DNA from: an uncultured Chloroflexia bacterium
Lineage (GTDB): Bacteria > Chloroflexota > Anaerolineae > Anaerolineales > UBA4823
Direction of reading: 5' to 3'
DNA: 64,000 bases
Assembly (NCBI GenBank): GCA_963726375.1
Contig: CAVSCE010000009.1
Coordinates: 546,492 to 610,491, forward strand
Positions 8,896-30,100 of this stretch are shown in pieces. The position numbers and the translations under genes are program-made. Position 1 is the stretch's first letter. Each line of letters opens with the position of its first letter. The notes under the pieces were generated by a model. It worked only from the letters and a program-made list of their open reading frames with translations, did no database searches and was not told the origin of the DNA.

Positions 8896-10414
8896 ATGGA
8901 GTCGAAAACAAGCATGAATGTTGGTTGGCATGACCATCCGCAAGATAATATCGTCATCTTTATCCCAGGATATATGGGCAGTCGACTTCGCAACCGTGTC
9001 ACTGGTGAGATTGTTTGGATCGATATCCAAAAGATTTTGAAAGATCCATTAGAAATCCATTCCAATTTAATTCATCTTTTCAAGCAAATGCAATTCCCGA
9101 ACGACGACCTGGTTCCAGACGGGATTGTCGAAGAAATCCTGTTCATCCCGCCATTTCTAAAGCAAAAACAATACGGACCACTTATTGATACACTGAAATC
9201 TTGGGGCTTTTCTGCTTCCATGGGGAATAAAGATGGAAAATCATCCAGGCTGTACACATTTGCCTACGACTGGCGGCAGGATAATCGAGAATCAGCAAGA
9301 AAGCTTTCTGCATTGGTACGATTTTTGAACAAGCGGCATCCCAATTCATTAATTTGGATTATTGCGCACAGCAATGGGGGCACCGTGGCACGTTGGTATA
9401 TCGAAAAGGAAGGTGGGAAAGAATTTATCGATCGGCTGTTCTTAATTGCATGTCCATGGGATGGAGCCCCAAAATCCATCCAAACTTTACTTCAGGGACC
9501 AGAAATCTTCTTTTTACGTCTATTCAATCAATTTGGCATTCAGCACTATTTCCAGGAGACTGCTCTCACATTCCCGTCCTTTTACCAACTTATTCCTGGA
9601 TTTCTCCCCTTCCTCAAGCAGGAAAATGGGAGTAAATTCGATCCATTTTTCGATCAGCGCTGGCTATCAAATTCCAGGCAGCGTGATATGCTCGAAAATG
9701 CCAGGAACTTCTACAATGAATTAGGGATGGATTTGAGTGTGGAAACACTTTGCTTTTTTGGTATCAATCAACCAACTGTCAGCGAAGGGATTGTATCGCA
9801 ATCTGCTTCAGGAAAAATTAACAGACATTCGCTGGATAATGGATGAGGAAGGGGATGGGACTATACCTGTCCATAGTGCGGTTCACCCAAATGCGTCCCA
9901 AAAACTCCCATATTCTGCTGACCATGGGGATATCTGCAATTACACACCTATGTTGGAAAAATTGAAGTTTGAATTAATTCAGCGGTACACCATCGGGGAG
10001 CTTGCTGCAGTTCCAGCTTCTCGAATAAAGGTAAGTTTTGATTCTGATCGAGACGTGTACCTTCCAGGTGAAGTTATTCCCATTTCCATCAAGGCATCTT
10101 CAATCGATACCGGACTGCCTATTTATGATCTACAGGTGGAAGTGAACATTCACCAGATTGTAGGTTTAGAGAATTATAAATGGGTCGAATTTACAGAAAA
10201 ATCAGGAACAATTTCCGAACCGTTTTTTTTGGCAGAAGCTTGTAAATCTCCAGGTCGATATGAAGCGAAAGTTACAGCACCAGCCAAGGATGGATATTAT
10301 GAGATGACAGCAAAAATCAAAACAAAAGAATTCGGTGTAGTAATTTGTCGTAAATTAATCCTGATTGAAGGAGATAAGATCGAATTTTCCAAAGGACAGA
10401 TCCCGGAAAATTAA
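8896..10414 (+). CDS. LCAT-like alpha/beta hydrolase (lipase/acyltransferase), frameshifted near 9800
   Basis: FIPGYMGSRL, YDWRQD and the nucleophile elbow AHSNGG are the lecithin:cholesterol acyltransferase family pattern. EEGDGTIPVHSA follows after the shift (ORF 9737..10414). Confidence 0.65.
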
Positions 10415-11622: not shown

Positions 11623-12372
11623 ATGATAGAAGGTGAAAATATCGAACCAACAGAAATTAGCGAACCGGAAAGCGGACAAAAAAGTCGGATCCTGATTATT
11701 GGCATTGCGATGCTTCTGGTCGGTTTAATCCTCGGCTATTTAGGCCGTGGCGCATTTGGACCAGAAGCAATTTCAGCTCGGAAGACAGAAACTGCAGCTG
11801 CCGCTGCTGTCCAAACCCAGGTTTCTTCAAATCAGGAAATGATGAAGTCGATTGTGGCCGAAACCATTCATTTCAAGGGAGATCCTGCCGCACCCATAAC
11901 TATGATTGAGTTTAGCGACTTTCAATGACCTTATTGCGGCCGATGGGCAACTGACGCGGGTCGTCAGATTGAAGAAAATTTTGTCAATAAGGGTGATGTA
12001 CGGTTAGGCTATTTTCATTTTGCTTTTCTTGGAGACGAGTCGATAGTCGCTGCTGAAGCGAGCGAATGCGCTGGAGACCAGGATAAATTTTGGGAATATC
12101 ACGACTATTTATTCTCGCATCAAAACGGAGAAAACCAGGGTGCGTTCAGCGAGGAAAATCTGAAAAAATTTGCTCAAGAGATGGGACTCGACCAAAAAGC
12201 TTTCAACTCATGCCTGGATTCCGGCAAATATACTGAAGCTGTCAATCGACAGAATGAGTTTGCTAGAAAATTAGGGGTTCAAAGCACGCCAAGTTTTCTG
12301 ATTAATGGAATTCCATTGGTTGGTGCGCAGCCGATTGAAAAATTTCAAGCATTATTCGAACAATTGAAGTAG
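11623..12372 (+). CDS. DsbA-family thiol:disulfide oxidoreductase with in-frame TGA at the first Cys of CXXC (candidate selenoprotein UPYC, or a nonsense allele)
   Basis: ORFs 11623..11928 and 12181..12372 are in the same frame, and the whole interval is open except for TGA 11926-11928. The context is ITMIEFSDFQ-TGA-PYCGRW, which matches the DsbA/Thioredoxin_4 signature EFsDFQCPYC. An N-terminal TM anchor is present. Confidence 0.7.
11948..11971 (+). promoter_or_regulatory. SECIS-like hairpin downstream of the in-frame TGA
   Basis: The hairpin is CAACUGACG-CGGGU-CGUCAG(A)UUG. It has a 6 bp GC-rich upper stem, 3 further bp below a bulged A, and a 5 nt apical loop containing GGG. The apical loop starts 28 nt after the UGA. 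Confidence 0.45.
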
Positions 12373-12422
12373 AAAATCCAGCTATTCCTTAGGATTCCAA
12401 AGGCAACAGCTTGATTTTCCCG

Positions 12423-12452
12423 AAAAAAGGCGATAAATACATCGCCTTTTTT
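12423..12452 (+). terminator. Rho-independent terminator after the DsbA-like gene
   Basis: AAAAAAGGCGAT-aaatac-ATCGCCTTTTTT forms a perfect stem flanked by an A-run and a T-run. Confidence 0.75.
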
Positions 12453-12570
12453 CTAATCTTGTGGTTTCTCTTTCATGCAATTCAACTTATAGAATTTTTA
12501 AATTCCCAGTCTTATAACCTTGACCGCATCCTTATCTTATGGAAAAATACTTTTTAGGGTTTGTAAATCA

Positions 12571-13140
12571 ATGAGTTCAACCAGCGGCATATATATAAAT
12601 TTAATTGTTTTTGATGGGGATGATACCCTCTGGTTTGGCCTTGATGGAGGTTATATTTCTGGGATCAATTATTCTGATTATGGGAGCGACACGTACACTT
12701 TTCGAAGAATTGGGGAGGATTTTATCGAACGCAATGATGGACAGAGATTTCGTCTGTATCCAGAAGTCCGAAGTTTGCTCGCAAATCTCATGAATATGAA
12801 ACTGCTGATCTCTTTGGCAAGCTACAATCATCCTTCACCAGTTGAGAAAGCATTACACGCATTCGAAATTAATCAATTCTTTCTTCACCCCGTCATCGAA
12901 TACAGCAGTCAAAAAGATAAAATGCTCAAAGCGATACTCCGCAAGTTTTCCCAGTCAGGTTGGCTAGTTAAACCTTCAACAACCCTCTTTATTGATGACG
13001 ATCACCAGAACCGCTATTTGAAACAAATGGAGTTTATTGGTGTACATTTTCTAAAGAAATCTTCAGATATTACAAATCTCAACGAGCTGATAAATAATCC
13101 TAAGTTTCAGCTAGTTCCTGCACAGAAAAGTCTGATTTGA
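12571..13140 (+). CDS. HAD-superfamily phosphatase (MDP-1-like)
   Basis: Motif I is VFDGDDTLW (DxDxT) and motif IV-like is LFIDDD. I set the start at the ATG at 12571. Confidence 0.6.
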
Positions 13141-13175
13141 ATATATTTCAGAAAACTATTACGAGGACTTGCTTA

Positions 13176-13595
13176 ATGAAATCGTATCGTAAAGAGATCT
13201 GGTTAAATATTCCTGCGAGGCGCAGCTTTATCAACATCACTTCGAAAATTGAGGAGTGTTTGCGAGAGAGTGGGATTATCGAAGGTATTGCATTGGTAAA
13301 TGCCATGCATATCACCGCTTCTGTTTTCATTAATGATGACGAAAGCGGTTTGCACAGGGATTATGATGACTGGCTTGAACAACTGGCACCCCATGATCCT
13401 ATCTCAAAATATCGACACAACAGGACTGGAGAAGACAACGCTGACGCCCACCTGAAACGCCAGATTATGGGACGAGAGGTTGTAGTAGCCATCTCAAATG
13501 GCCTCCTTGATTTTGGTCCCTGGGAACAAATTTTTTATGGAGAATTTGACGGACGTCGACCGAAACGGGTGCTTGTTAAAATCATAGGTGAATAA
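13176..13595 (+). CDS. YjbQ/UPF0047 family protein (secondary thiamine-phosphate synthase-like)
   Basis: [23 protein letters not shown]...[42 protein letters not shown] is characteristic of YjbQ. Confidence 0.8.
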
Positions 13596-13720
13596 TCGAT
13601 CAAGCCTGCCTTAATTGCCAGATTTAATAGGCTGGTCTTCTCCTTTGGGAAGTCAACTTCTCCATGCAATTGGAAATGATGTATGATTAGATTCTGTTAA
13701 TTCTTTTCAAGGAGACAAAA

Positions 13721-14075
13721 ATGAAAGCGATAGCCTACATCGCCGCAGCGATTCTGATCTTCTTTGGTGTGCTTTTTGTCTGGGGCGCTTTCAGTTCCGA
13801 AGGGTCCCCTGGTTGGATTCTGGTTGGTTTGATCAGCATTTCAGCAGGCTTTGTGATCATCTGGTTTTTCAGCCGTGCCAAAAAAAGCGAATCGGGATCG
13901 AATATCACCTATCAGGTAGATCTTCCGGCAAATATCAGTCTTGACACTCTTAAATGCAAGTCATGCGGTGGAGCATTTGACCGCTGATAACATTTCGATG
14001 GTGGCTGGTGCACCGGTTGTAAAATGTCCTTACTGTGGAACGAGTTATCAGCTCACCGAGGAACCGAAGTGGTGA
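13721..14075 (+). CDS. small 2-TM membrane protein with C-terminal zinc ribbon (frameshift in a TTT run at about 13975)
   Basis: An AAGGAG ribosome-binding site precedes the start, and two TM helices follow. The ribbon reads CKSCGG...(shift)...LTADNISMVAGAPVVKCPYCGTSYQLTEEPKW*, a CxxC-N19-CxxC arrangement. Confidence 0.6.
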
Positions 14076-14103: not shown

Positions 14104-15786
14104 ATGAGAAAAATTTATATCTCATTTATTCTTATCTGCTTGATGTTGATTTTCCATGGGACTGGATCGGCACAATCCTATCTTTTTCAGTTGGAACAAC
14201 TGGAAGTCAACATTTATGTGAATGATGATGGATCTGCTTCCATTGATTATCGATTTACATTTGTTAATGATCTTTCAGCACCAAGGATCGAATATGTTGA
14301 TGTTGGGATGCCAAACAGTCAGTTTACACTTCAGGGTGCAACCGCCGAAGTGAACGGACAGACTGTCGCAGTATCTCAATCTGATTATGAGGGTGACGGA
14401 TCGGGTTTTGCCGTAGTGCTGGGTGGAGCTGGTATACCCCCAGGGCAGCGGGGGGAAGTTCATGTGAATATTCCAGATGCCGGAAGTTGGCTCCGGTATG
14501 ACAGCGAGGATGATGGTTACGCAAGCATTGCCTTTACACCTACCTGGTTCGGCTCAGAGTATATCAAGGGCACAACAGAAATAACGGTTTCGATTCATCT
14601 TCCTCCTGGGATCCAACCGGAGGAACCTCGCTGGCACAAAGCTCCATCTGGATGGCCCGAACAACCAGAAGTAAGCCTGGATGAGGAAGGCAGGGTAGTT
14701 TACACATGGACGAATTCGGCAGCATCAGCTTCGAAAAAATATATATTTGGCGCTTCCTTCCCAACTCAATATGTACCTCCAACAGCAGTAAGTAAGCCCT
14801 CCTGGTTTGAAATCCTTGGCATCAGCGAAGATACATGTTTCACATTTCTTTGCTGCGGAGGGATTTTTGCTTCGGTTATCGGTGTGGGATGGTGGAATAA
14901 TGAGGCATCCAGAAAACGAAAATTAAAATATCTTCCACCAAAAATCACGATCGAAGGTCTCGGGATCAAACGCGGACTTACAGCTGTCGAAGCAGCCATA
15001 CTCATGGAACAACCACTCGATAAAGTGATGACCATGATCCTTTTCGGAGTCCTGAAGAAAGCAGCTGCGACAGTCCGCACAAAAGATCCGCTTGAATTAG
15101 ATGTCGTAGAAATACTTCCTGATGGGTTAAATCCATATGAAGTTGATTTTCTCAAGGCTTTTAGATTACAGGAAAAAACCGAACGCCGAAAAGCTCTGCA
15201 AACAGTCACCATAGATATCGTTCAAGCCGTTTCCGCAAAGATGAAGGGGTTCAGTCGAAAGGAGACAATCGCATATTACCAGGATATTATGGAAAAAGCC
15301 TGGAAGCAAGTTGAAACGGCTCAAACACCGGAAGTGAAGAGCGAAATGTTTGATAAAAACCTGGAGTGGACCATGTTGGATAAAGAATATGACGACCGCA
15401 CCAGGGATGTTTTCCAATCAGGTCCTGTTTACCTACCTAACTGGTGGGGCCGATTTGATCCAACATACAACAGACCAATCAGTACCTCCCGACCTATTTC
15501 ATCCCCTACCCAGGTGGGGCAACCTTCCGGAGGCGGCGTTTCGCTACCAACACTTCCCGGCGGCAGCTTTGCTGCATCGATGGTCAATGGAGTGGAAAAT
15601 TTCTCTGCTGGCGTCATAGGAAATGTAAATGATTTCACCAGAACTATCACAAACAAAACAAATCCAATCCCGGTTCCAAGCGTAACAAGAAGCGGCGGCA
15701 GCAGCAGCGGAAGGAGCGGTGGGGGATGTGCCTGCGCCTGTGCCTGTGCTGGCTGTGCGTGCGCTTGCGCCGGTGGAGGTCGATAG
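14104..15786 (+). CDS. DUF2207-like membrane protein with a C-terminal Gly/Ser spacer and (Cys-Ala)n tail
   Basis: The signal peptide is MRKIYISFILICLMLIFHGTGSA. It is followed by an extracytoplasmic beta-rich domain, one TM helix (FTFLCCGGIFASVIGVGWW), and a cytoplasmic region (GLTAVEAAILMEQPLDKVMTMILFGVLKK). The protein ends in SGGSSSGRSGGGCACACACAGCACACAGGGR*. Confidence 0.65.
   Translation: MRKIYISFILICLMLIFHGTGSAQSYLFQLEQLEVNIYVNDDGSASIDYRFTFVNDLSAPRIEYVDVGMPNSQFTLQGATAEVNGQTVAVSQSDYEGDGSGFAVVLGGAGIPPGQRGEVHVNIPDAGSWLRYDSEDDGYASIAFTPTWFGSEYIKGTTEITVSIHLPPGIQPEEPRWHKAPSGWPEQPEVSLDEEGRVVYTWTNSAASASKKYIFGASFPTQYVPPTAVSKPSWFEILGISEDTCFTFLCCGGIFASVIGVGWWNNEASRKRKLKYLPPKITIEGLGIKRGLTAVEAAILMEQPLDKVMTMILFGVLKKAAATVRTKDPLELDVVEILPDGLNPYEVDFLKAFRLQEKTERRKALQTVTIDIVQAVSAKMKGFSRKETIAYYQDIMEKAWKQVETAQTPEVKSEMFDKNLEWTMLDKEYDDRTRDVFQSGPVYLPNWWGRFDPTYNRPISTSRPISSPTQVGQPSGGGVSLPTLPGGSFAASMVNGVENFSAGVIGNVNDFTRTITNKTNPIPVPSVTRSGGSSSGRSGGGCACACACAGCACACAGGGR
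15727..15771 (+). repeat. coding (Cys-Ala)4-Gly-(Cys-Ala)3 tract
   Basis: The codons are TGT GCC TGC GCC TGT GCC TGT GCT GGC TGT GCG TGC GCT TGC GCC. Synonymous codons are mixed, so the repeat holds at the peptide level and is not a clean DNA microsatellite. Confidence 0.9.
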
Positions 15787-15835
15787 ATTTGAATGAAGAT
15801 TTCGTGATGATTTTTATTCTTTGAGGTCGTATTTG

Positions 15836-17187
15836 ATGGATTTCCGGAAATATTTCGCAAGATCAAGACGGACTTAACCTGCGAACTCGCATGGTATTCA
15901 GCTTTCATCCTTTATTCGCGATAATGGTTCTGAAAAGGCACATATTCACCTGCGAATAGATACAGACGGAAGTGGTCTCTTGATCATCAACGCAAACAGC
16001 GTAATTCACTTGAATCTGATCAGCAGCATCGATGGCACTCCTGGCGTTACAAGACACTCCTAAAGCCCAAGCAGTTCATGAACTTAAGAGGAAATTCTCA
16101 ACATCGACTCACAAGATATCTGGTGACTATACGCAGTTTGTTTCGCAATTAAACGAACTGATTGATCCAAATGGCGCCTGTCCCATTCATGCTCTAAATC
16201 TTGAAACCATTCCTCCTTTCACAACAAAGCCTTCGGCTCCCTATCGAATGGACATAGCCTTGACCTACCGCTGTAACAATGATTGCTTTCATTGTTATAA
16301 CGCCCGACCTCGTGATTTTTCAGAAATTTCAACGGATGCTTGGAAGAAAATCATCGATAGGATTTGGGAAATTGGCATCCCCCATTTGGTTTTCACGGGT
16401 GGAGAACCGACGCTCCGGCCAGACTTACCGGAACTGATTGCCTATGCGCAGCACGTCGGACTGATCACTGGATTAAATACCAATGGTCGTTCGTTAAGCA
16501 AGCCTAATTATCTGGAAACACTGGTCAGCTCTGGATTAGACCACGTACAAATCACAATAGAATTCTCACGACCCTCAGATCCACGACCAGATGGTTCGAG
16601 CTAAGGGTGCCTGGTCACAAACTGTTGCTGGAATTCGCAATGCGTTGGACACCCCACTTTACGTAATGACCAACTCTACGATGTTGCGCCAGAATTCACC
16701 ATCAATGAACAAGACACTTCATTTTCTTGCCGAACTCGGAGTGCCGACGATCGGCCTGAATGCCTTGATCTTTTCCGGTTCAGGTGCTACATGCGGAAGC
16801 GGGCTTCATGAGGCAGAATTGCGGCCGATTCTCGAGCTTGCTCGAAACCTGACCGAGCTTCATCATCAACGGCTGATCTGGTACACACCTACCCAATATT
16901 GCAATTTTGACCCGATGGATCTGGATCTTGGTGTCAAAGGATGTACTGCCGCCCGCTACAATATGTGTATCGAACCGGATGGAGCAGTCATCCCATGCCA
17001 ATCATATTATTTTCCCCTGGGTTCGATGCTCAACGATCCATGGGACAGCATCTGGGAACATGATCTGGCAAACCAGCTGCGGAATCGCCAGGAACGGCAG
17101 GAAAAATGTAATTCCTGTCAATTATTTTCAGAATGTGGTGGTGGGTGCCCGTTATCTTCGACGCATAATCCAAATAATAAAGAATAG
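15836..17187 (+). CDS. radical SAM/SPASM peptide-maturase-like enzyme with a PqqD/RRE-like N-terminal domain; disrupted by an in-frame TAA at 15875 and two frameshifts
   Basis: The radical SAM motif is CNNDCFHC (CxxxCxxC), and GGEPTL is present. The SPASM signature is exact: CIEPDGAVIPC (G-x4-C) followed by CNSCQLFSECGGGC (Cx2Cx5Cx3C). The N-terminus HLRIDTDGSGLLIINANSVIHLNL...DYTQFVSQLNELID follows the PqqD pattern. The fragments are 15836..15877, the frame up to about 16025, 16032..16604 and 16591..17187. Confidence 0.8.
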
Positions 17188-18345: not shown

Positions 18346-18433
18346 ACAGGAAATCGAAGTCCAAAGCACTCCCCTAACACAAAAAATCGATTGGCATCCA
18401 CGTTTTGTCCAGCAGGCACGCTGGACTGAAGAT

Positions 18434-19150
18434 TTGCGCAGGTTTATTCTGCGCCAAATCGATCTCTTTGATAGAAGCAGTGTCCTCGAAGTGGGCTGCG
18501 GGACTGGCGCTGTCCTTGAAACGATAACAGGGCTCGCACATGCGAATAGTTGGATTGTGTCTGGAGTGGACATAAATATTAATTACTTGACTTCAGCCCA
18601 CAAGATTTGTCCTACATTCGGGCTGACTTAAGGCGATGCGCATTTCTTACCGTTCTCTCAGGGATATTTTGACCTCGTTTTTTGCCATTTTCTGTTGATG
18701 TGGGTCTCAAATCCTATAGCTGTATTATTTGAAATGAAGCGTGTTGTCCGTCCTGGAGGTTGGGTCGTAGCATTCGCAGAACCAGATTATGGAGGCCGAA
18801 TCGACGAACCAGAAGAGTTAGAGAAAATCAGCGCGATTCAGGAATTAAGCCTGAAGCAGCAAGGCGCTGAAACTCGGATGGGGCGAAAATTGTCAGGATT
18901 ATTCCATCAAAACGGTTTCGTCGATATCGAATGTGGTGTGATGGGTGCTCAGTGGAACCAATCTTCAATTCGCAGCTCTGAAGAATCCGACCAGGAATGG
19001 CAGGTGATGAAGTCTGATCTGAACCGCTTCAATAGTATTCATAACTTCGAGGAATTCCGATTAATGGATCTGGCTGCCAGACAATCAGGGTCCCGCATCC
19101 TGTTTGTACCTACTTTTTATGCGATGGGACGCGCACCAAACGATAAATAA
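18434..19150 (+). CDS. class I SAM-dependent methyltransferase with an in-frame TAA at 18629-18631
   Basis: Motif I is VLEVGCGTGAV, followed by GDAHFLPFSQGYFDLVFCHFLLMWV and MKRVVRPGGWVV. ORFs 18434..18631 and 18695..19150 share a frame and are separated only by the TAA. The frame is open upstream to 18314 without a canonical start, so the true start is uncertain and probably abuts the paralog stop. Confidence 0.75.
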
Positions 19151-19151
19151 A

Positions 19152-19186
19152 AGATCATGCTGGGGACAACATCCCCAACATGATCT
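19152..19186. terminator. bidirectional hairpin between the convergent methyltransferase and araB
   Basis: AGATCATGCTGGGGA-caac-ATCCCCAACATGATCT forms a 15 bp stem with one mismatch. Confidence 0.65.
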
Positions 19187-19207
19187 TGGAAAGATTTTTA
19201 AGAATTC

Positions 19208-24463: not shown

Positions 24464-24800
24464 TTTCTACTCCATTTCTAGATTGAATAATATCAACTTG
24501 CATTTTTACCTGAATATTTTACATTCAATTTTTAATATTTTACTAAGGCTGACTACTTATTTGTCTGTTCCAATCCCAAGATCGACTGAAAAGAGCAGAT
24601 TACATAAGATTGATTTGGCGATCGCAAACAAGATATAATTTGATATACCAGGTCAAAATGTTATTAAGACGCGAAAATTTTATATGTTATCGTGTCCGGG
24701 AACGTTATCATTCTATCATGATATTAAACGCATCACTAGAGAACCAGGAGATGTATTTATTCCCCAGAAATTGAACAAAACCTCCAGTTGAAATTTCTTA

Positions 24801-25148
24801 TCAATCTTTAGGAATACCGATTTCAATCATACCGGCATTGGTTCTTACCGGATAAGCTGGAATATCCACAAATGCTGGCAAGGAAAGTGCTTTTCCATCC
24901 CTGATATCGAACCTGGCCCCATGTCTCGGACACACAATCTCGAACCCTTCAATCTCACCTTCACCAACCGGACCATCGTCATGGCTGCAGATATCTTCTA
25001 TAGCGAAGAATTTACCAGCAATCTCGAACAGGACAAGCGAAATGTTATCGATCTCAAAAAATAATCTTTCACCTGGCGTAAAATTATCCTGTTGAACAAC
25101 TGGAATAAATTCAAGATTTCCAGAGTCCCGCATTGAATAATTAAACAC
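24801..25148 (-). CDS. Rieske [2Fe-2S] domain protein (last gene of the suf operon)
   Basis: The Rieske ligands are CSHDDGP...CPRHGARF. Confidence 0.85.
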   Translation of the reverse strand: MFNYSMRDSGNLEFIPVVQQDNFTPGERLFFEIDNISLVLFEIAGKFFAIEDICSHDDGPVGEGEIEGFEIVCPRHGARFDIRDGKALSLPAFVDIPAYPVRTNAGMIEIGIPKD

Positions 25149-25174
25149 GTTAATCTCTCGTCACTTAATTGAAC

Positions 25175-25570
25175 TCAGTCAACTAAATCGTCGCTGGCTT
25201 CTCCCAAACCATAAACCCCAGCCTTCAAGACTTTCAGCGACAACAATGCGCATTTCAGACGAACTGGACCCAACTCCAGGCCTAATAATTCCAGTAGATC
25301 TTCTTTTGAAAATTGTTTTACTTCTTCGACCGATTTATTTATGACAGAATCTAACAATAGATCCGCAGATGCCTGCGAAATCGCACATCCATGTCCTTCA
25401 AAGACAGCCTCGTTGATCCGATTACTCGAGTCTACTCGCAGTTCGATTCGAATGTGATCCCCACAAAGCGGATTATCGTCTTCGAAGGCAATGTCGTGCG
25501 GGACAAGGTTTCCGCGATGTTGAGGATTTTTATAACGATCAATTATTATTTCTCGATAAAGGTCATCCAT
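25175..25570 (-). CDS. sufU: SUF system Fe-S scaffold SufU (NifU/IscU-like)
   Basis: The sequence reads YREIIIDRYKNPQHRGNL, NPLCGD and GHGCAIS. I set the start at the ATG at 25570, just after the sufS stop. Confidence 0.88.
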   Translation of the reverse strand: MDDLYREIIIDRYKNPQHRGNLVPHDIAFEDDNPLCGDHIRIELRVDSSNRINEAVFEGHGCAISQASADLLLDSVINKSVEEVKQFSKEDLLELLGLELGPVRLKCALLSLKVLKAGVYGLGEASDDLVD

Positions 25571-25583
25571 AGAAATTACTTTC

Positions 25584-26834
25584 TTATAATCTAAAGAATT
25601 CACGAACCTTGTACAGTGATTCGGCTAGATGATCGACTTCTTCTTTTGTGGAATAAAGATAAAAACTAGCCCTGGCAGTTGCGGGTAATCCATATTTCTC
25701 ATGAAGGGGCATCGCACAGTGGTGTCCTGCGCGAATTGCGATCCCAGATCGATCTAATATTTGAGAGATATCATGAGGATGAATCCCAGAAAGCGTAAAA
25801 GAGACTACACCGCCGCGGTACTCGGCTTTTGGACCAATGACTTGAACGCCTGGGATTTCTTCAAGCCGTTCCATCGCATAAGCCACAATCCATTTTTCAT
25901 GGTCAGCAATCGCTTGCATGCCAATCGTATTCAAGTAATCAATTGCAGCATTGAAACCAATTCCTTCAGCAATTGCTGGCGTTCCAGCTTCGAATTTATG
26001 AGGCAGCTCGTTTGGTGCGAATGACCTCAAATGGACGCGTTTGATCATATCTCCACCACCTAAGAATGGTGGCATCGCGTCCAGCATCTCTCTCTTCCCG
26101 AATAATACTCCTATCCCGGTCGGTCCGCACATCTTATGAGCGGAGAAAGCTATAAAATCTGCATCCAGTTCTTTGACGTCGACCGGTAAATGCGGTACTG
26201 ATTGTGCTGCATCGACTAGCGCTACAGCTCCAGCCTGATGAGCCAGGTGAATAATCTCCCTGGCTGGATTAATCGTCCCGAGGACATTGGACATATGGGT
26301 AAATGCTACAAGTTTTGGTTTAAGCTCAAGTAATTTGGCATATTGGTCGATATCCAGCAGACCATCTTCGCCGACAGGGATGAATTCCAAACGAAGATCT
26401 ATCTCCGTTGCAAGGATATGCCATGGTACTAAATTGGAATGGTGTTCCATTTCAGTGAGTATGACGACATCGCCTGTCTTGAGAAATTTTCTCCCCCACG
26501 AATAAGCCACAAGATTTATTGATTCTGTTGTATTCCTGGTAAAGATCACCTCCCTCGATGAGGCGGCATTGATAAAACTCGCAACTTTTTTTCTTGCCAA
26601 CTCGTAACCTGCAGTCGATTCCTCAGCAAGCACATGAATCCCCCGATGGATATTTGCATTGGACTCTCTGTAAAAATGATCCATGGAATCGATCACAATC
26701 TGGGGTTTTTGGCTCGTAGCTGTTGAGTCCAGATAGACCAGTTTAATTCCGGGGTGGACATCACGATTTAAGATTGGAAAATCCGAGCGAATACGATTTA
26801 TATCAAAGAATTGTTCTGGTTTGTGATCCATCAT
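25584..26834 (-). CDS. sufS: cysteine desulfurase SufS
   Basis: It is a 416 aa class V aminotransferase. It carries the SAHKMCGPTGIG PLP lysine and the RAGHHCA active-site cysteine loop. Confidence 0.92.
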   Translation of the reverse strand: MMDHKPEQFFDINRIRSDFPILNRDVHPGIKLVYLDSTATSQKPQIVIDSMDHFYRESNANIHRGIHVLAEESTAGYELARKKVASFINAASSREVIFTRNTTESINLVAYSWGRKFLKTGDVVILTEMEHHSNLVPWHILATEIDLRLEFIPVGEDGLLDIDQYAKLLELKPKLVAFTHMSNVLGTINPAREIIHLAHQAGAVALVDAAQSVPHLPVDVKELDADFIAFSAHKMCGPTGIGVLFGKREMLDAMPPFLGGGDMIKRVHLRSFAPNELPHKFEAGTPAIAEGIGFNAAIDYLNTIGMQAIADHEKWIVAYAMERLEEIPGVQVIGPKAEYRGGVVSFTLSGIHPHDISQILDRSGIAIRAGHHCAMPLHEKYGLPATARASFYLYSTKEEVDHLAESLYKVREFFRL

Positions 26835-26877
26835 GATTGTTTATTTCGCCGAATTAACTTTTATATGAAATCCAACA

Positions 26878-27222
26878 TTATTCTTCGTCTTCCGTCTCGG
26901 AAGAAGCAGGTGGTTGAACTACACGACCACCTGTTGGTCGTTTCCGTCTGCGGCGAAGCGGTTTTCGGAGATTATTTGAACCTTTAGGACACCAAAGCAC
27001 ATGATCTGGGACCATCCAACCGTCGGTCAAGTAGACATTATCTTGAAACTGGACAGCAATCAATTTCATATCCACCTGGACGATAGTCCCGACAAGCCAA
27101 TCCCGAATTCGCTCGCCTTGTCTGTCGTGATCGCAAAAGACCTCGATCAAATCACCCACTCGAAAATTTTCATCTCGATCGGGAGCTGTGGAAAAATATA
27201 GACTAGACAAATTATCCTCCAA
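26878..27222 (-). CDS. hypothetical protein with an Arg/Lys-rich then acidic tail, embedded in the suf operon
   Basis: It is a 114 aa ORF between sufD and sufS on the same strand. I recognise no motif. The tail is KPLRRRRKRPTGG...ETEDEE. Confidence 0.4.
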   Translation of the reverse strand: MEDNLSSLYFSTAPDRDENFRVGDLIEVFCDHDRQGERIRDWLVGTIVQVDMKLIAVQFQDNVYLTDGWMVPDHVLWCPKGSNNLRKPLRRRRKRPTGGRVVQPPASSETEDEE

Positions 27223-27254
27223 AATGATTCCGAAAAGTATTCATCATAATATAA

Positions 27255-28615
27255 TTATCCCATTTTCTCTTCGATGGCGTTTTGAAATCGAGAGCGCACT
27301 CCTTCGAATGGGATGCGCTGCATGATGGGATCAAAAAATCCTTCCACGATCAAGCGTTCTGCGTCACTATACGAGATGCCCCGACTGCGAGCGTAGAATA
27401 TCTGATCCTGATCAATTTTTCCAACCGTAGCCCCGTGCGTGCAGCGCACATCATCAGCCAGAATCTCCAATCCAGGAATGGAATCCGCACGGGCTTCTCG
27501 GCTCAGCACAAGATTTCGATTTGCCTGATATCCATCTGTCTTCTGGGCGCCAGGTGCAACGTAAATCATCCCCTGCCAGACCGATCGACTTTTATCTCGG
27601 AGCGCACCTTTAAAAAGCAGGTCACTCGTTGTATTTTTCGCCAGATGGTTTTGTTGGGTATCGTGATCAAAATGCTGGCTACCGCTCGAAAAATAAAATC
27701 CTGACATCCGACCAGTAGCTCCCTGGCCTATAAGCTCGATTTCGGAAAAGTTCTTTGTGAGGTGGCTCCCAATGGCTCCAAAAATCCAATCCAAATTCCC
27801 GTCTTTCTCCACCCTAACCCTCTCATGGCTGAAATTCCAGACATGTTCACCCCAAGATTGGAGCTCTACAAAACGTAAATTAGCCCGCTCTCCAACATGA
27901 ATTTCTAAAACCCCGGCGTGCATTGTATGCCCATTCGGCTCGGTTTGAGATGCTGTCTCATGAACATAAGTCAAGGAAGAATCATCGTCTAACCAGACAA
28001 GGATATGGCTCAAGTATGCCAGATTTATCCCAGGACCCCAAAGCATGCTGTGCAAAGGCAACTCGAGGTGGAGGTTTTTCGGAACATAAATCAGTAAGCC
28101 CAGATCGGCATATGCACTCGCCAAAGCAGCGAACTTACCTTCAGATGGCTGGACTATTTTTCCAGAATTTTTTCTAGAATCTGTGGATGTTCGCTTTGTG
28201 CTGTCTTAATATCTGTAAAGATAACCCCTTTTTGGGCCAAAATTGGATCCAAATCAATCCTTGTTTGATTAGCCGTTAGGATAATCTGACCACCATGCTT
28301 GTTTCCTGTTAAGGGTTCAAGTAACGCTTTTGGAGGTTCGGAGAGCTGCGCTTTGCTCCGATCAAGCTCAATTGGTAGAATAAATTTTTCTACAGGTAAT
28401 CCTCGCAGGTCTGTCCTGCGCCAGGGTTCGTCGTTCACTGTGGGCATTCGGAGCTCATTGTACGTAGAAAACGCATTGTTGCGGAAATCTCTAATAAAAT
28501 CAGGAGTTCCAGTACTATAAGCAGTGCCTGGCGGCAGCCTGTCAACAAACGCAAATTCCTTGCGTTCTGCACTTCCTCTTTGACCAGATCTTGATATGAC
28601 GACTCGTTCTTTCAT
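27255..28615 (-). CDS. sufD: Fe-S cluster assembly protein SufD, frameshifted near 28130
   Basis: Fragments 28154..28615 and 27255..28124 are contiguous. The C-terminus has the typical SufB/D pattern: SREARADSIPGLEILADDVRCTHGATVGKIDQDQIFYARSRGI. Confidence 0.88.
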
Positions 28616-28628
28616 CTTTCCTAGGCCT

Positions 28629-30034
28629 CTATCCGACCGATCCTTCCATTTGGAGCTGAATCAACCGGTTCATTTCAATAGCATACTCCATCGGGAGTTC
28701 TTTCACGAGAGGTTCGATAAATCCGGACACAACCATGGTGGTTGCTTCTTCCTCACTCAACCCCGACTCATCAAATAAAATAGCTGCTCTTCACCAACCT
28801 TGGAGACCGAAGCTTCATGTCCAACAGAAACATCCTCTTCATCAATTTCAATGTATGGGTAGGTATCTGATCGAGCTTTCTCATCTAAAAGCAGTGCATC
28901 GCAAACTACATTCGACTTGACATCGAATGCACCTTGATGAACCTTCAATAAACCTCTGTAAGAAGCCCTACCACTCCCTTTGCTAATTGATTTTGAAGTG
29001 ATCTTGCTGCTGGTATGCGGCGCAAAATGGATTGCTTTACCCCCGGCATCTTGATGCTGTCCGGGTCCTGCAAACGCCATCGACAATATTTCGCCATGTG
29101 CTTTCGGACCCAGCAAATACGTGGAGGGTATTTCATCGTCAATTTGGATCCCAGATTTGCATCTACCCATTCCATGGTCGCGCCTTCATAAACCAAAGCA
29201 CGCTGGGTGACAAGATTATACACATTCGTTGACCAGTTCTGAATTGTTGTATATCGGACACGCGCATGAGGTCTTCACAATGATTTCAATCACACCAGAA
29301 TGAAGAGAATCGGTCGTATATGTTGGTGCCGTGCATCCTTCAACATAGTGAACCTGCGATCCCTCATCAGCGATGATCAGTGTGCGCTCGAATTGACCAA
29401 TATTCGCGATATTCAGACGAAAATATGCCTGTAGTGGAAGGTCAACCTTGATTCCCTTCGGAATATAGATAAATGAGCCACCGGACCACACGGCTCTGTT
29501 CAAGGCGGCAAATTTATTATCCTCTATTGGAATTACAGTGCCAAAATATTGCCTGAAGAGGTCTGGATGCTTGCGAAGTCCGTCTTCGATGCTTAAGAAT
29601 ATCACACCTAATTTTTCAAGGTGATCTTGCACCTTGTGGTAGACCATTTCGGACTCGTATTGAGCTCCGACTCCGGCCAGGAATTTTCGTTCTGCTTCAG
29701 GAATACCCAACTTATCGAAAGTATTCTTGATCGTTTCTGGTACATCATCCCACGATTGGCTTTCAGAATCTGATGGTTTCACATAATAATAAATATCATC
29801 CAGATTCAGGTTACTGAGATCCCCTCCCCAGACTGGTATCGGACGTTTTTGGAAATGATCAAGAGCTTTTAATCGAAAATCGAGCATCCATTCGGGTTCA
29901 CCCTTCATTGAAGAAATCTGCTCGACGATTTTTCGATCCAACCCCTTGCGGCTCTTGAAGACATAGGTGTCGGGGTCATTAAAACCATACTTATAATCAC
30001 CAATATCCTCTAAAATCCGGGAATCGCTTGACAT
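28629..30034 (-). CDS. sufB: Fe-S cluster assembly protein SufB, at least three frameshifts
   Basis: SufB sequence is spread over several frames: YKYGFNDPD.., [26 protein letters not shown].., [77 protein letters not shown] and [24 protein letters not shown]. Confidence 0.9.
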
Positions 30035-30100
30035 TCTTACCTCCACACAAACCCCATCCCTAGATAACAACGGGTGATTATCAGGATGGGGGCGATAAGT

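Follow-up and report, generated by a model that had tools for sequence, protein, structure and literature searches.

To our knowledge, maturases that combine radical S-adenosylmethionine (SAM) and SPASM domains are known almost only from small secreted peptides, and we know of very few examples, QhpC and CrpA, of thioethers that are installed enzymatically on whole proteins. QhpD, a radical SAM/SPASM enzyme, reportedly thioether-links Cys residues in QhpC, the small subunit of quinohemoprotein amine dehydrogenase. QhpC stays functional as a protein; it is a small periplasmic subunit with Asp/Glu acceptors and does not contain a Cys-Ala repeat. In Methanococcus voltae, CrpC installs thioethers (ranthionine) on the full-size protein CrpA (PMC13692751, 2026), and in Streptomyces sparsogenes, StsB links a C-x-C-x-C donor strand with a G-x-G-x-G strand, which gives a nested hairpin (PMC10288494). 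LahSB is a lanthipeptide C-terminal carboxylate methyltransferase (PDB 6UAK; PMC11285071). The cassette described here lies within a 64,000-nucleotide stretch of DNA, referred to as the window, from an uncultured Chloroflexia bacterium (assembly GCA_963726375.1, contig CAVSCE010000009.1, positions 546,492 to 610,491). One gene of this cassette encodes a membrane protein that ends in an alternating Cys-Ala tail, and judging from sequence comparisons this tail is probably the substrate of the radical SAM/SPASM enzyme encoded directly downstream.

Sequence and conservation of the Cys-Ala tail

The tail gene is read from an ATG at position 14104, the longest open reading frame (ORF) beginning with GTG at 14035, and its 3' end encodes ...SGGSSSGRSGGG CACACACA G CACACA GGGR before a TAG codon. 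Written with its spacer, the C-terminus of the 560-aa product is ...TNKTNPIPVPSVTRSGGSSSGRSGGG-CACACACA-G-CACACA-GGGR, which corresponds to the pattern GGG-(CA)4-G-(CA)3-GGGR-stop. The Cys codons of the core are, in order, TGT, TGC, TGT, TGT, TGT, TGC and TGC, and the Ala codons are GCC, GCC, GCC, GCT, GCG, GCT and GCC. An earlier note on this DNA, made from the letters of the window, had named the Ala codons as GCC, GCT and GCG, which matches the sequence, and had described the Cys codons as alternating between TGT and TGC; both are used, without strict alternation. It had also taken the span 15661-15786 for the last 30 residues, a minor slip for what are 41 residues and the stop codon. Tandem Repeats Finder identifies only a weak 6-nt array of 3.8 copies within the core (15727-15749).

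A search of a large protein collection returned more than 4630 homologues of the tail protein. The tail ends exactly in CACACAGCACACAGGGR in 117 of the best 120 of these homologues (52-69% identical overall), and the remaining three comprise two with a single-residue difference and one that a frameshift cuts short. Among the same 120 proteins, the Gly/Ser spacer that precedes the core differs freely. A sample independent of the motif was obtained by searching 61 relatives with the protein cut before its tail. This tail-less query located an orthologue in 45 of the 61, and 28 of the 30 orthologues fetched with it carry the exact motif; of the other two, one gene is frameshifted and one runs into a contig end. 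Each of the 126 distinct tails has Arg and a stop codon after the core, although the search pattern contained neither, and the full sets of six Arg codons and three stop codons occur among them. The third codon positions are only 41% identical across these tails, with the amino acids fixed. Conservation in a 50-sequence alignment, 18 members of which had been found via the motif, reaches 0.99 over the last 19 residues and 0.96-0.99 in the core, against a family mean of 0.44. At the DNA level, the (CA)3GGG pattern occurs in 50 of 401 genomes of another phylum and the reversed control pattern in none of the 401.

Because the amino acids are fixed, the third positions are scrambled and the reversed control is absent, the Cys-Ala periodicity is, at the level of sequence, a selected peptide feature and neither a microsatellite nor a chance run. 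No other part of this large, unnamed family of membrane proteins is conserved as well as the tail. The earlier note had proposed that the periodicity belongs to the peptide and not to a DNA microsatellite, and that the tail is maintained at the protein level. Both proposals stand, as the third positions vary among orthologues that keep the tail exactly, and near and far relatives alike retain it with its phase unchanged, so that the random, phase-variable tails suggested as a sign of neutral drift were not seen. An opposite-strand ORF (15429..15908) was considered as a gene and rejected, since it is the third positions of the + frame that vary.

A degenerate DNA pattern for the core was also run against species-representative genomes. 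Most of the matches listed belong to Anaerolineae, and the other taxa among the matches listed are Acidobacteriota, Aminicenantes, Planctomycetota, Zixibacteria, Coatesbacteria, Fermentibacterota and Clostridia, together with three Asgard archaeal lineages. One carrier, Ornatilinea apprima P3M-1 (locus L048), is in culture. No Pfam or NCBIfam family was found for the tail protein, using both the window protein and an orthologue. One homologue (P0017) carries the Joint Genome Institute (JGI) name 'Fe-S cluster assembly iron-binding protein IscA', presumably because of its cysteine tail; all other homologues are named as hypothetical proteins.

The AlphaFold2 (AF2) model of the tail protein predicts a signal peptide at residues 2-17, a confidently modelled beta-sandwich ectodomain at residues 28-220 and one long transmembrane helix, for which the hydrophobicity windows cover residues 243-264. 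These are followed by a cytoplasmic winged-helix-like and helical domain (residues 294-451), a disordered link (residues 459-479) and, at the very end, a disordered spacer and tail (residues 525-560). The C-terminal half of the protein and its tail are predicted to be in the cytoplasm because a basic stretch, SRKRKLKYLPPK, follows the membrane helix (positive-inside rule), and a tail that is both cytoplasmic and disordered would then be accessible to a cytoplasmic enzyme. Ahead of the spacer, the leader-like region contains helices at residues 486-505 and 508-519, with a predicted local distance difference test score (pLDDT) of about 80, and the motif F-T-x-x-(I/V)-T-x-K-T-N-P-x-P, which is seen across phyla. 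P521 of this motif is invariant, and N520 and P523 are nearly invariant. The region is a candidate docking site for the recognition domain of the enzyme described below. The spacer that separates it from the core exhibits a mean conservation of 0.44 and a pLDDT below 40. Foldseek analysis of the ectodomain (14176-14823 in the window) with the membrane helix found a resemblance to ribophorin I/Ost1 of the oligosaccharyltransferase complex (E-value 8e-8), and the ectodomain also resembles the N-domain of M1 aminopeptidases.

The radical SAM/SPASM maturase and its cassette

Three homologous loci share five genes, encoding a small two-transmembrane Zn-ribbon protein, the tail protein, the radical SAM/SPASM enzyme (the maturase), a radical-SAM-like protein and a methyltransferase. 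The flanks of the cassette differ among the three loci, and no protease or transporter gene is found within the cassette at any of them. Linkage was assessed in 120 loci derived from the pattern, 97 of which could be judged, and in 84 of these 97 the start of a maturase homologue lies between -500 and +600 nt from the tail stop codon. For 12 of the 13 unlinked loci, the genome encodes a clear maturase orthologue elsewhere; in two of these genomes that orthologue adjoins another tail gene, and in two more the cassette is rearranged. Tail protein and maturase are distributed identically over the 61 relatives, both being present in the same 45 and both absent from the same 16. The pairing of tail and maturase is also found in Asgard archaea, Acidobacteriota, Planctomycetota and other phyla, where the methyltransferase also belongs to the cassettes and the Cys-less maturase paralogue does not. 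When the last 51 residues were used as the query against 1.8 billion representatives, no small free-standing precursor with this core came up, and the short matches look like fragments of the large protein. The core ends a membrane protein of 475-774 aa and not a short, leader-cleaved, exported precursor.

The maturase of the window is recovered in pieces that are 64-69% identical to the intact orthologue of locus L001, and Pfam Radical_SAM and SPASM are identified on these pieces. The CxxxCxxC motif (C127, C131, C134) is invariant in 88 maturases, and the Pfam Radical_SAM match scores 85 bits. In the SPASM domain, C336, C350, C368, C405, C408, C414 and C418 are conserved at 99-100% in the same 88 sequences. 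These seven residues are the complement for two auxiliary clusters, and Pfam SPASM is present in 36 of 36 members. The N-terminal domain is predicted to be a recognition element (RRE) of the kind found in enzymes that mature a ribosomally made, modified peptide (RiPP), as the corresponding Pfam family PqqD is matched in 25 of 36 members (best E-value 4e-9) and the N-terminus matches the lasso-peptide RRE protein TfuB1 in a profile search (2e-4). Comparison of the family profile with solved structures places SkfB first (1e-29), followed by PqqE, SuiB and CteB. The AF2 model (pLDDT 87; predicted template modelling score 0.87) contains four strands and three helices in its N-terminal domain and aligns full-length with SkfB, SuiB and CteB. 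The intact orthologue reaches no NCBIfam equivalog cut-off. The SCIFF/CteB family TIGR03974 scores 22.6 bits against a cut-off of 425 with the SPASM half from the window, and is outside the best 25 matches of the intact orthologue; the StsB family NF045574 scores 72.6 bits against a cut-off of 625. A Tyr directly follows the CxxxCxxC motif, as in StsB, and a Thr precedes the GGE motif, both residues being placed by motif adjacency and not by alignment.

The next gene encodes the Cys-less paralogue of the maturase, with Pfam matches to Radical_SAM and weakly to PqqD. Across 57 sequences of this paralogue, the RRE-like N-terminus, an HLR motif and the GGE motif are kept and every cluster ligand is lost. 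It is a probable non-catalytic partner of the maturase, as judged by this pattern of residues.

The final gene encodes a class I SAM methyltransferase that belongs to Pfam Methyltransf_11/25 and reaches no NCBIfam equivalog cut-off. Its closest solved relative is LahSB (6UAK; E-value 1.5e-14), and BioC, Tam and Mtf2, further neighbours of it in NCBIfam, likewise are carboxyl O-methyltransferases. The presence of this gene varies with the type of tail, and three classes of tail were drawn from the 50 pattern-bearing genomes among the 401 of the other phylum. Class i consists of the TNP motif followed by (CA)4-G-(CA)3-GGGR-stop, with the gene order small protein, tail, enzyme, methyltransferase. 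In the other phylum, the methyltransferase is found in four of the five class i loci fetched, next to the enzyme in three. Class ii (L206-L212) ends in (CA)3-G-(CA)4-GGGR-stop, with the order small protein, enzyme, enzyme-like protein, tail, methyltransferase, and all seven loci contain the methyltransferase. Its pre-spacer motif is different (..DK..KAM..), though also conserved and in the same place as the TNP motif. Class iii (L202-L205 and L218-L297) is composed of CACAC-(V/A)(S/G)-CACACACA-GGGG-AGC-x-(K/R)-K and further residues in proteins of about 320 aa, and this extension often holds H-x-C-P-x-C. The class iii loci encode the enzyme, one to three tail genes and LemA, and the methyltransferase is absent from all four genome loci and from all 28 metagenome loci of at least 6 kb, nine of which have ample flanks. 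A core of CACAC-xx-CACAC is common to all three classes. Since the methyltransferase accompanies GGGR-COOH tails (35 of 48 loci) and is missing in class iii, it appears to track the free GGGR-COOH end, a correlation across non-independent clades.

The small gene that opens the cassette lies upstream of the tail gene in most loci. Compared by tblastn with its L001 orthologue, for which weak Pfam zinc-ribbon and DUF7559 matches were identified, it exhibits 69% identity in frame 3 up to 13981 and 91% in frame 1 from 13977. In the window, the tail gene is intact, as is the Cys-less paralogue, and frameshifts or in-frame TAA codons are present in the other three of the five cassette genes (small protein, maturase and methyltransferase). 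The maturase contains an in-frame TAA at 15875-15877 and frameshifts near 16020-16030 and 16564-16577. Assembly error is the likelier cause of these interruptions, because many other genes of the window are likewise broken up into overlapping ORFs on the same strand and because a relative of the same genus, 95% identical, has a frameshift of its own. In that relative (locus L138, protein P0013) the tail gene is frameshifted about 160 codons before its end, and gene callers therefore miss the Cys-Ala tail there. The features of the cassette are listed in Table 1.

Table 1. Coordinates of the tail-protein cassette within the window, with the main features of the tail protein
Feature	Position	Strand	Details
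Small two-transmembrane protein with C-terminal Zn-ribbon	13721..14072	+	First cassette gene; one frameshift near 13977-13981
Tail protein gene, 560 aa	14104..15786	+	Translation, homologues, AF2 mean pLDDT 82.7
Single transmembrane helix	14827..14928	+	Residues 242-275; followed by basic stretch
Leader-like region	15550..15678	+	Residues 483-525; two helices and conserved motif
Variable Gly/Ser/Arg spacer	15679..15726	+	Residues 526-541; length and sequence vary
Cys-Ala core, CACACACA-G-CACACA	15727..15771	+	Residues 542-556; seven Cys
GGGR and stop, invariant C-terminal end	15772..15786	+	GGGR 15772-15783; stop 15784-15786
RRE-radical SAM-SPASM maturase gene	15836..17187	+	Three tblastn pieces, in frames 3, 1 and 2
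Cys-less maturase paralogue, 381 aa	17200..18345	+	60% identical to L001 orthologue
Class I SAM methyltransferase, last cassette gene	18386..19150	+	tblastn 48% over 252 aa; in-frame TAA 18629-18631
17-bp hairpin terminator	19151..19187	.	Between cassette and convergent FGGY kinase gene

The cassette also exhibits variation in other loci. Two or three tandem paralogues of the tail protein accompany a single maturase gene in L205 (6937-9989), L091 (1013-4551) and L078. Some Anaerolineae cassettes contain extra genes between the maturase and the Cys-less paralogue, as in L008 (3871-4209 and 4225-5229), and similar genes are found in L010, L016, L040, L041, L054, L071, L096, L100, L110, L113 and L119. 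The extra genes encode a 113-aa PAS-like protein (Pfam PAS_4, E-value 3.5e-4) and an unannotated protein of about 335 aa. L057 and L081 are rearranged, with the maturase on the opposite strand followed by a protein of 306-343 aa that is a distant relative of the cytoplasmic part of the tail protein, without the Cys tail. An ATP-grasp (D-Ala-D-Ala ligase-like) gene within the L003 cassette (9177-10223) was rejected as a member since it is absent from the other loci examined. Directly after the L003 cassette are Suf Fe-S assembly genes (Rieske, SufU-like and SufS-like; 12210-13668), and Suf genes are also present in the window at about 24800-30100, about 6 kb downstream of the cassette. This proximity may be simple synteny.

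Proposed modification and competing explanations

Three roles had been suggested for the tail in the earlier note, and the gene context favours that of a substrate, as a site of sactionine- or ranthionine-type cross-links. The tail would be a RiPP-like core fused to the cytoplasmic end of a single-pass membrane protein. The N-terminal RRE of the maturase would bind the helix and TNP motif located about 20 residues before the core, and the flexible Gly/Ser spacer would deliver the core to the active site. The pre-spacer motif varies with the enzyme clade, as would be expected of a leader. Radical chemistry would then take place on the cysteines, most likely giving intramolecular thioethers of the sactionine or ranthionine type that would stiffen a CACAC-xx-CACAC hairpin. 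Thioether cross-links are the leading candidate for the product, at somewhat less than even odds. With a three-residue turn, Cys would be opposite Ala across the hairpin, which would permit a Cys-to-Ala thioether ladder like the nested hairpin of StsA. The Cys-less paralogue would serve as a non-catalytic helper. The methyltransferase would then act on the product, most plausibly forming a methyl ester on the carboxylate of the invariant C-terminal Arg; this C-terminal methyl-esterification is suggested tentatively, from the kinship with carboxyl methyltransferases.

The full picture would be a post-translational modification system common to bacteria and archaea, in which a ribophorin-like membrane protein carries a stapled, sulfur-bridged hairpin whose Arg carboxylate is capped by a LahSB-like methyltransferase. 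In this complete form the proposal is doubtful. If true, it would describe a RiPP-like structure that is borne by a protein, possibly as a cofactor, metal cage or docking knob, rather than a secreted natural product.

Several observations weigh against a modified tail. The maturase is interrupted in this very window, and operon linkage by itself would also give the co-occurrence of tail and maturase. The single-sequence RRE match is marginal in L001 (21.7 bits against a cut-off of 23.4), and the best NCBIfam matches of the enzyme are generic (NirJ2, AhbD and PqqE at about 110 bits) and far below every cut-off. For the methyltransferase, the match to LahSB spans only the Rossmann core (residues 19-144), and the association with tail type rests on few, non-independent clades. 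The tail could work unmodified, Cys-X-Cys repeats being classic metal-thiolate ligands, and a literature search found no published chemistry on this tail.

The enzyme is outside every named thioether-synthase family, and its neighbours by structure or profile include anSME, PqqE, SuiB and the epimerase EpeE/YydG. These neighbours suggest that the tail could be a substrate for a chemistry other than thioether cross-linking, with the conversion of Cys to formylglycine (anSME-like), desulfurisation, epimerisation of alternate residues and C-terminal C-C/C-S chemistry (MftC-like) as candidates. The methyltransferase might then cap thiols instead of the carboxylate, and S-methyltransferases do exist in RiPP pathways (PMC11285071). 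Such a chemistry is nonetheless unlikely, as the best match of the enzyme in both profile and fold is the sactisynthase SkfB, and Cys-rich cores beside RRE-SPASM enzymes gave thioethers in the characterised cases considered (PMC10288494, PMC13692751).

The tail could also be an unmodified metal- or iron-sulfur-binding module, with metallothionein-like Cys-X-Cys thiolates on a hairpin face, in which case the radical SAM enzyme would act elsewhere or would draw on the tail as a scaffold or donor for clusters or sulfur. The sequence of the tail does consist of repeated Cys-X-Cys, with its seven Cys at i, i+2, and a two-residue turn (A-G, or V-S in class iii) would place Cys facing Cys across the hairpin in a manner that would suit a metal site. 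The IscA-like name of P0017, the suf genes adjoining the L003 cassette and the carriers being anaerobes, rich in Fe-S proteins, point in the same direction. A simple metal site, however, would need no dedicated RRE-bearing peptide maturase in every genome, no conserved leader-like motif upstream and no invariant GGGR-COOH end with a co-varying methyltransferase. Metal-binding tails usually tolerate changes in spacing, whereas the Cys-Ala tail is invariant, and an unmodified metal module is accordingly held to be improbable. The modification of the tail by the neighbouring maturase is the explanation that is kept here.

Neutral low-complexity sequence or a slipped hexanucleotide repeat without function has next to no probability and is ruled out as the origin of the tail by the orthologue and codon analysis, because the weak 6-nt periodicity (3.8 copies) seen in this genome is set against a peptide that is invariant across phyla and two domains of life, with scrambled synonymous sites and with Arg and a stop codon always following the core.

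Comparison with described systems

DUF2207 proteins (PF09972) have a signal peptide, a beta-rich ectodomain, a transmembrane helix, a cytoplasmic domain and a Gly-rich tail. This overall layout is that of the tail protein as well, and a further point of likeness is the LemA gene that follows the class iii form. No DUF2207 match was obtained from Pfam at E-values up to 1 with the orthologue of the window protein or with two archaeal members, and ordinary DUF2207 tails are not known to have a Cys-Ala core or an enzyme partner. A Cys-Ala tail system is not described in any of the literature retrieved for the motif, for SPASM enzymes with Chloroflexi membrane proteins or for DUF2207. The system is widespread and, judging from these searches, apparently undescribed, and in it a membrane protein would receive radical SAM maturation at its tail. 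The motif reads the same, residue for residue, in lineages as far apart as Chloroflexota and Asgard archaea, its carriers number in the thousands and it comes with enzymes of its own, which makes it a clean and testable case. Its chemistry would provide a handle on the function of a large unannotated membrane-protein family and of its DUF2207-like relatives.

The three-domain architecture of the maturase is shared with SkfB, CteB and SuiB, the solved RRE-radical SAM-SPASM or twitch RiPP maturases that act on SkfA, SCIFF and SuiA, respectively. These enzymes are only 14-19% identical to the window-family enzyme, and the peptides that they modify are small, secreted and accompanied by dedicated genes for export and processing, which the window cassette does not have. 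LahSB acts on the free C-terminus of a modified peptide, and its likeness to the cassette methyltransferase is limited to the SAM-binding core. The StsA/StsB/StsC system is similar in having Cys at alternate positions and an RRE-dependent radical SAM enzyme. StsA differs in being a short leader-core peptide with glycine acceptors, and the RRE of the Sts system is a separate protein. CrpA and CrpC also consist of an RRE-radical SAM-SPASM enzyme and the Cys-rich C-terminal region of a full-size neighbouring protein. CrpA is soluble, however, and contains ten 17-residue repeats with C-X-X-Q/D motifs, and CrpC is a member of TIGR04463, a family absent from the best NCBIfam matches of the window enzyme. 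Compared with CrpA/CrpC, the window system has a membrane protein as host, a single short Cys-Ala core that does not vary and, in addition, a methyltransferase and a probably non-catalytic paralogue. Relative to both CrpA/CrpC and StsA/StsB, it is set apart by four features, namely its enzyme family, its host being a membrane protein, the shortness and invariance of its core, and its accessory genes.

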